Of a stretch of 64,000 nt of DNA, positions 55,128 to 55,455 are shown piece after piece. The notes under the pieces are model-generated. The model had not been told where the DNA came from and did no database searches. It saw only the letters and a list, made by a program, of their open reading frames with translations. The position numbers and the translations under genes were made by a program. Origin of the DNA: Escherichia coli (GTDB lineage Bacteria; Pseudomonadota; Gammaproteobacteria; Enterobacterales; Enterobacteriaceae); NCBI RefSeq assembly GCF_016903815.1, contig NZ_CP069973.1. The stretch is one strand, 5' to 3'. Positions within the stretch are counted from its first letter, which is position 1; each line of letters opens with the position of its first letter.

Positions 55128-55204
55128 CGCGGGGTGGAGCAGCCTGGTAGCTCGTCGGGCTCATAACCCGAAGGTCGTCGGTTCAAATCCGGCCCCCGCA
55201 ACCA
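55128..55204 (+). tRNA. metZ: initiator tRNA-fMet (CAU)
   Basis: CGCGGGGTGGAGCAGCCTGGTAGCTCGTCGGGCTCATAACCCGAAGGTCGTCGGTTCAAATCCGGCCCCCGCAACCA; individual copy naming follows K-12 order and is tentative. Confidence 0.95.
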
Positions 55205-55237
55205 ATTAAAATTTGATGAAGTAAAGCAGTACGGTGA

Positions 55238-55314
55238 CGCGGGGTGGAGCAGCCTGGTAGCTCGTCGGGCTCATAACCCGAAGGTCGTCGGTTCAAATCC
55301 GGCCCCCGCAACCA
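55238..55314 (+). tRNA. metW: initiator tRNA-fMet (CAU)
   Basis: Identical 77-nt sequence to the first copy; 33-bp spacer. Confidence 0.95.
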
Positions 55315-55347
55315 ATCAAATTTGATGAAGTAAAAGCAGTACGGTGA

Positions 55348-55424
55348 CGCGGGGTGGAGCAGCTTGGTAGCTCGTCGGGCTCATAACCCGAAGGTCGTCG
55401 GTTCAAATCCGGCCCCCGCAACCA
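55348..55424 (+). tRNA. metV: initiator tRNA-fMet (CAU), D-loop variant
   Basis: Same sequence except AGCTTGGTAGC instead of AGCCTGGTAGC in the D-loop. Confidence 0.93.
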
Positions 55425-55432
55425 ATTATTGA

Positions 55433-55455
55433 ACACCCTAACGGGTGTTTTTTTG
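55433..55455 (+). terminator. Intrinsic terminator of the tRNA-fMet operon
   Basis: acaccc-taac-gggtgt followed by ttttttt. Confidence 0.8.

Follow-up and report, generated by a model that had tools for sequence, protein, structure and literature searches.

Why does one of three tandem initiator tRNA genes in an Escherichia coli chromosome differ by a single base from the other two, and what does this difference tell about the strain that carries it? The question arises in the window, by which we mean the whole 64,000-nt stretch of contig NZ_CP069973.1 analysed here, where the first-pass annotation described three such genes, the third with a D-loop substitution that was taken to be probably neutral and to mark the allele of this strain. 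We find that (i) the locus is an ordinary metZWV operon and (ii) the C17U change in its metV gene is real and inherited within a clone, and we consider it quite likely that (iii) the same change has recurred through deamination at a Dcm site and (iv) it is near neutral.

Three tRNA-Met(CAU) genes, all on the plus strand, were identified in the window by ARAGORN: metZ (55128-55204), metW (55238-55314), and metV (55348-55424). Each gene is 77 nt long and scores 61.4 bits with the Rfam tRNA model RF00005, for which the gathering score is 29; the two spacers have 33 nt each. In alignment with the metZ-metW-metV genes of K-12 MG1655 and their flanks, 600 of the 601 positions of 54920-55520 are identical, the sole mismatch being position 55364 in metV. 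ARAGORN, Rfam, and the K-12 alignment agree in the assignment of three tandem initiator tRNA genes. The gene order around them, ygdD-gcvA-gcvB-ygdI-csdA-csdE-tcdA-mltA-metZWV-amiC-argA-recD-recB, is that of K-12, where metZ (b2814), metW (b2815), and metV (b2816) encode tRNA-fMet1, lie in the same slot between mltA and amiC, and have the same gene length, the same 33-nt spacers, the same upstream region, and the same terminator. Together, metZ, metW, and metV are the source of most cellular tRNA-fMet. The window here contains the canonical metZWV operon of E. coli, composed of one promoter, three tandem initiator tRNA genes, and one terminator, and the locus in the window is an allelic variant of this operon rather than a different locus.

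A candidate promoter on the plus strand, with hexamers inferred from the sequence, consists of TTGCAT (55087-55092), a 16-nt spacer, and TATAGT (55109-55114); a G+C-rich stretch separates the candidate TATAGT box from the metZ tRNA, and the promoter region (55087-55114) is the same as in K-12. A metZWV promoter with its -10 box has been mapped immediately upstream of metZ, and the sequence tgaaaacgcgagcggagtatagtgcgcatccacgga upstream of metZ forms part of a metZWV knockout primer (PMC3017606). A strict sigma-70 consensus scan of 54900-55600 called no promoter; the assignment is based on the identity with K-12 and on the published mapping rather than on the consensus scan. An intrinsic terminator on the plus strand (55431-55457) contains the stem-loop GAACACCC-TAAC-GGGTGTTT (55431-55450) followed by a T run, and the end coordinate of 55455 that the first-pass annotation gave to the three genes reaches into it. 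Spacer 1 (55205-55237, plus strand) is identical to its K-12 counterpart and invariant across the 14 compared sequences. Spacer 2 (55315-55347, plus strand) is unlike spacer 1 and varies between strains: ECNB21-M121 has an extra A, 90-9280 and 2013C-4974 show G-to-A changes, and an ST69 strain has a shorter variant.

The metZ gene is of the C17, G46 type and identical to K-12 metZ, and metW is identical to metZ, as had been noted in the first pass. The third copy differs from the other two by one base only, a C-to-T substitution at window position 55364 that turns AGCCTGG into AGCTTGG. In standard numbering, the D-loop reads A14 G15 C16 C17 U17a G18 G19 D20 A21; the substitution affects C17, so the earlier placement of the change in the 16/17 region was right. 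With copy 3 differing at position 17, the window does not hold three identical tRNA-fMet1 genes. A motif scan found the Dcm site CCTGG intact in the D-loops of copy 1 (55143-55147; C16 C17 U17a G18 G19) and copy 2 (55253-55257), whereas in metV the substitution converts CCTGG at 55363-55367 to CTTGG. The difference from the K-12 operon is confined to this U17 in place of C17 and the resulting loss of the Dcm site from one copy.

All three copies retain the characteristic features of initiator tRNAs. C1 and A72 are unpaired in each predicted fold, and the anticodon arm UCGGG-CUCAUAA-CCCGA contains three consecutive G:C pairs (29-31:39-41), a known initiator feature (PMC3017606). The A11:U24 pair in the D-stem (GAGC...GCUC) and the 9-nt D-loop are also common to the three copies, the loop length being kept by the C17U change. 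Position 46 is G throughout, as in tRNA-fMet1 (PMC3017606). The minimum free energy fold of each copy is the cloverleaf at -30.3 kcal/mol, and the energy is unchanged by C17U.

Single-base variants of initiator tRNA have been described before. The tRNA-fMet2 encoded by metY of K-12 is such an isoform, with A46 (PMC3017606), and an A17 isoform encoded by metW is present in Nissle 1917, CFT073, and ATCC 25922 (bioRxiv 10.64898/2026.04.16.719103). We found A17 in 83 E. coli genomes. Like both of these isoforms, the variant in the window affects one base in one of four genes and stands beside canonical copies. The A17 isoform hits the very same nucleotide. The D-loop position is variable, as the first pass had it. 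Unlike A17, the C17U change is a transition, lies in metV of another clone, is the product expected from deamination, and recurs in four genes.

To see how common the allele is, an exact 77-nt U17 copy was searched for in 5,426 complete E. coli genomes and found in 124 of them; the remainder differ by at least one base. Matches in gene context place T in metV in 34 genomes (0.6%), in metZ in 24, in metW in 23, and in metY in 13. These counts include only full-length exact matches (for metV, the identity band contains 48 matches with partial ones included and 34 exact ones), and they add up to 94 of the 124 genomes, the other 30 or so having leader or spacer polymorphisms or an altered copy number. 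The lists of genomes with T in metZ, metW, and metV have no member in common, and one genome, DLI.6n (NZ_CP103974.1), combines T in metV with T in metY. With C in K-12 and T in 34 of 5,426 genomes, T is not the common allele of metV.

Segment 39001-64000 of the window has 100.0% identity with 29 complete genomes, each of which also belongs to the set of 34 with T in metV. The U17 allele of metV appears to be fixed among the closest relatives of the window and, contrary to the first pass, is no mark of this strain. Two of these relatives, WCHEC96200 and WCHEC4533, belong to ST405 of phylogroup D (PMC5762679, PMC9037040). The 29 genomes probably represent the ST405 clone. As a separate observation, the next-best matches to this segment are E. 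coli B/BL21, with 99.8% identity, and K-12 differs from the window by just 12 bases in 6.2 kb, compared with 93 in the same 6.2 kb for the ST69 strain, which also belongs to phylogroup D. The clone may have acquired the segment, as a phylogroup-A-like haplotype, by recombination.

Outside the clone, the same change was found on different chromosomal backgrounds. For 12 retrieved carriers, we compared a 6.2-kb region comprising the upstream genes and the operon (49428-55494 of the window aligned with 13 other strains). Carriers of T in metV occur on at least five flanking backgrounds, which differ from the window by 0, 18, 84, 93, and 93 bases; those outside the clone are KMi029 (18), C10 (84), ECNB21-M121 (93), and the ST69 strain (93), and two metV carriers outside the clone have different spacer-2 alleles. 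The three sampled carriers of T in metZ lie on three backgrounds that are 115-151 bases apart in pairwise comparison, and the three sampled carriers of T in metW likewise on three backgrounds 91-123 bases apart. Each sampled carrier outside the clone has its own flanking background, and at least 11 backgrounds were sampled in total. The same D-loop, AGCCTGGTA, is present in an unrelated single-copy gene, proK, encoding tRNA-Pro (CGG), and the transition of the inner C was observed there in 11 of 5,422 genomes belonging to several strains. The U17 polymorphism is homoplasic and hence a weak marker of lineage, because T turns up again on unrelated backgrounds as well as in metZ, metW, and metY.

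The position of the change suggests a reason for its recurrence, one that the first-pass annotation had not noticed. C17 is the second (inner) cytosine of a CCTGG that spans positions 16-19 of the ancestral sequence and is retained by metZ, metW, and K-12. Dcm methylates the second C of CCWGG, and CCWGG is a hotspot for G:C-to-A:T mutations that is countered by Vsr (PMC2715241, PMC3527292, PMC13250602). The most likely mutational route is deamination of a presumably methylated C17, a conclusion drawn from the motif and from published knowledge, neither dcm nor vsr being part of the window. In the proposed mechanism, 5-methylcytosine at C17 would deaminate to give a T:G mismatch in CTWGG/CCWGG, a mismatch that escaped very-short-patch (Vsr) repair would become CTTGG, that is, U17, and this event would have occurred independently in metZ, metW, metV, metY, and proK. 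The recurrence of C17U is thus likely a consequence of the location of C17 in a Dcm methylation site. The variant resembles known Dcm/Vsr hotspots in its ancestral CCTGG, in the change of the second C, in the product CTTGG, and in its occurrence on many backgrounds; classic Dcm hotspots are known from lacI and from mutation-accumulation experiments, whereas this one is known from standing variation in tRNA genes.

Changes at the adjacent positions provide a comparison. The neighboring, unmethylated C16 has become T in 6 genomes, and 1 genome has G18A, which would result from the mirror event on the opposite strand, compared with 124 genomes for C17U; these are counts of genomes and not of mutational events (the 83 genomes with C17A, for instance, seem to represent mostly one clone), so that 124 against 6 and 1 overstates any difference in rate. 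G18 participates in the network of interactions between the D-loop and the T-loop (PMC5814906). The simplest reading of the contrast is that mutational pressure is equal on both strands, G18A being purged and C17U tolerated. G18 is generally regarded as universally conserved in tRNA, and a transcription-strand bias in deamination could add to the difference between C17U and G18A. Outside the tRNA sites, a further four variable columns of the 6.2-kb alignment fall on methylated CCWGG positions; in one of them, column 949, K-12, KMi029, and 203740 have CTTGG and the window has CCTGG. In all, 7 of 341 variable columns are at such positions, which make up 0.7% of the alignment, the counts being small and raw.

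The RNA encoded by the U17 copy is not peculiar to E. coli. In a scan of one genome per species, covering at least 120 loci, at least 51 tRNA copies among the matches listed are identical to copy 3 across all 77 nt. Among the matches listed, they come from Vibrio, Photorhabdus, Xenorhabdus, Providencia, Pectobacterium, Dickeya, Edwardsiella, Shewanella, Parashewanella, Aggregatibacter, Rodentibacter, and one strain labelled Enterobacter. Again among the matches listed, several Vibrio species have U17 in every copy of the fetched loci, and mixed tandem arrays of C17 and U17 copies, as in the window, occur in Photorhabdus, Xenorhabdus, and Vibrio hannami. Unlike in Vibrio and the other genera with a native U17 initiator tRNA, U17 is a minority allele in E. 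coli and here affects one of four copies. Since other genera encode the very same RNA as a tRNA of the initiator type, the U17 RNA is likely a fully competent initiator. Together with the unchanged fold, this supports the earlier suggestion that the variant is probably near neutral. U17 would persist because the loop position is tolerant and because the cloverleaf, the 9-nt loop, and the initiator identity elements stay intact. E. coli has three other initiator genes beside metV (PMC3017606), and a small defect of the U17 tRNA, if any, would thus be buffered by these further copies.

Several other explanations of the variant have to be weighed against recurrent deamination at the Dcm site. The idea that T is a private, one-off neutral marker of this strain agrees with the rarity of T in metV and with the C in K-12; we give it almost no credence, given that T is common to 29 of 29 nearest genomes, lies on at least four divergent flanking backgrounds besides, and has exact counterparts in metZ, metW, metY, and proK. 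A sequencing or assembly artefact, produced by nanopore miscalls at Dcm CCWGG motifs and failed polishing in repeated tRNA copies, would account for the location of the variant exactly in such a motif, as Dcm motifs accounted for most consensus errors of the nanopore basecallers of about 2017-2019, with a share of about 70% around 2019 (PMC6591954), and one genome, AUSMDU00014361 (NZ_CP045827.1), is altered at the Dcm sites of both metW and proK. Such an artefact is extremely unlikely as the general explanation: 29 assemblies produced independently in different laboratories agree on T in metV alone, with C in metZ and metW, several carriers cluster in related groups with a common allele, and the mirror error G18A is seen once against 124 cases of C17U. 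Moreover, the 12 sampled carriers have no private CCWGG change but that in the tRNA; the remaining 20 CCWGG sites in their 6.2-kb flank are either intact or as in K-12. On the evidence of the assemblies and of the intact flanking CCWGG sites, the artefact was ruled out for the window and for these 12 carriers. Some sporadic carriers could nevertheless be nanopore consensus errors at Dcm motifs, and the double Dcm-site changes in DLI.6n (metV and metY) and AUSMDU00014361 (metW and proK) could reflect either weak Vsr repair or basecalling errors. A single ancestral C17U, spread by gene conversion among the tandem copies and metY and by homologous recombination between strains, would make a hotspot unnecessary. 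Tandem identical copies are classic substrates of conversion, and MB10, with T in metW, is only 4 bases away from the window, with T in metV, in 6.2 kb. We regard this scenario as unlikely on the whole: the exact-context lists for metZ, metW, and metV share no genome, metY is about 370 kb distant with only 77 nt in common, and the carriers have many backgrounds with differing spacer alleles. Furthermore, the inner-C change in the 11 genomes with altered proK cannot be due to gene conversion among the initiator copies, since proK encodes another tRNA, to which they cannot pass the base. Part of the spread of C17U could still come from conversion between initiator genes or from recombination among strains.

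Selection for U17 as a functional isoform within the clone, acting through a contact with EttA or through dihydrouridine formed by DusB, would fit the presence of the allele in all 29 nearest genomes, and a preprint speculates that the A17 isoform may be advantageous (bioRxiv 10.64898/2026.04.16.719103). EttA is reported to contact C17a/U17b of tRNA-fMet in the P site (PMC4890201), and a subtle functional effect of U17 may arise by this route. EF-P recognizes the 9-nt D-loop common to tRNA-Pro and tRNA-fMet by its backbone shape (Katoh et al., PMC4890201); in tRNA-Pro1, the equivalent change, C17aU in the numbering of that paper, was without effect on EF-P, whereas deletion of that nucleotide abolished the effect (PMC4890201). 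E. coli DusB, which makes D17, is specific for U17, and its substrates are described as always having G18 next (PMC5814906); unlike these known substrates, metV copy 3 has U17 followed by U17a. The main text of the Vibrio cholerae modification map contains no statement on D17 in the U17 initiator tRNA, and PMC5393177 does not describe how positions 16, 17, and 17a are arranged in crystal structures of tRNA-fMet. Just one of the four initiator gene copies is altered, and presence throughout a clone needs no selection; we consider the selective explanation very improbable. A broader version of the deamination scheme assumes that DNA methylation and repair, and not just the function of the tRNA, have shaped the D-loops of E. 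coli initiator tRNA and tRNA-Pro: the Dcm site at C17 would generate U17 isoforms again and again, C17 would be held in Dcm-bearing enterics by the bias of Vsr (CTWGG to CCWGG), Vibrio, Photorhabdus, and Pectobacterium would carry U17, and the U17 tRNA of the clone would differ in EttA contact or in dihydrouridine. This version appears quite improbable to us.

Recurrent deamination at the Dcm site of an ordinary metZWV operon, the reading that we prefer, has limited but practical consequences. The metZWV operon is textbook knowledge and single-base initiator isoforms have already been described, and the locus represents neither a new family nor a new mechanism. In itself the variant is of small import, being the normal initiator tRNA of other genera. 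What is added is a likely cause, a Dcm-site deamination hotspot inside a tRNA gene, and the homoplasy of the resulting polymorphism, which makes it unfit as a strain or lineage marker unless the flanking context is used. For CCWGG variants in tRNA genes, a nanopore artefact should be weighed against genuine deamination before the variant is interpreted. With 124 genomes for C17U and one for G18A, the two methylated positions of a single site offer a compact natural example of a single mutational pressure with selection on tRNA structure as the filter.

Several additional features were observed in the vicinity of the operon. In the window, amiC follows directly after metV (55425-55500), whereas other strains have an island there. 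The island is a type VI secretion cluster (tssB, tssC, tssK, tssL) in 90-9280 and EC5654 and a PTS/sugar-utilization cluster in MS 21-1; the loci compared here are 6331-12093 of L131, 6331-11894 of L132, and 6221-12093 of L135 (from EC5654). In EC5654, U17 is found in metW, and the third tRNA copy (L135, 6144-6220) adjoins the type VI secretion island. The metV copy of this strain has C28 replaced by A (gtcggg to gtaggg), a change expected to disrupt pairing of 28 with 42 in the anticodon stem.

Three small RNAs were matched by Rfam in the same part of the chromosome. Full-length CsrB (26984-27343, minus strand, 382.9 bits) and GcvB (50437-50642, plus strand, 199 bits) are expected for this chromosome region. 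The ES036 (CssrF) RNA was matched with 46.5 bits (gathering score 37.6) at 53658-53700 on the minus strand, in the intergenic region between tcdA and mltA. This region is 238 bp long in the window and in K-12 and 76 bp long in 90-9280, MS 21-1, 2013C-4974, and EC5654; the ES036-matched element thus lies within an insertion/deletion polymorphism.
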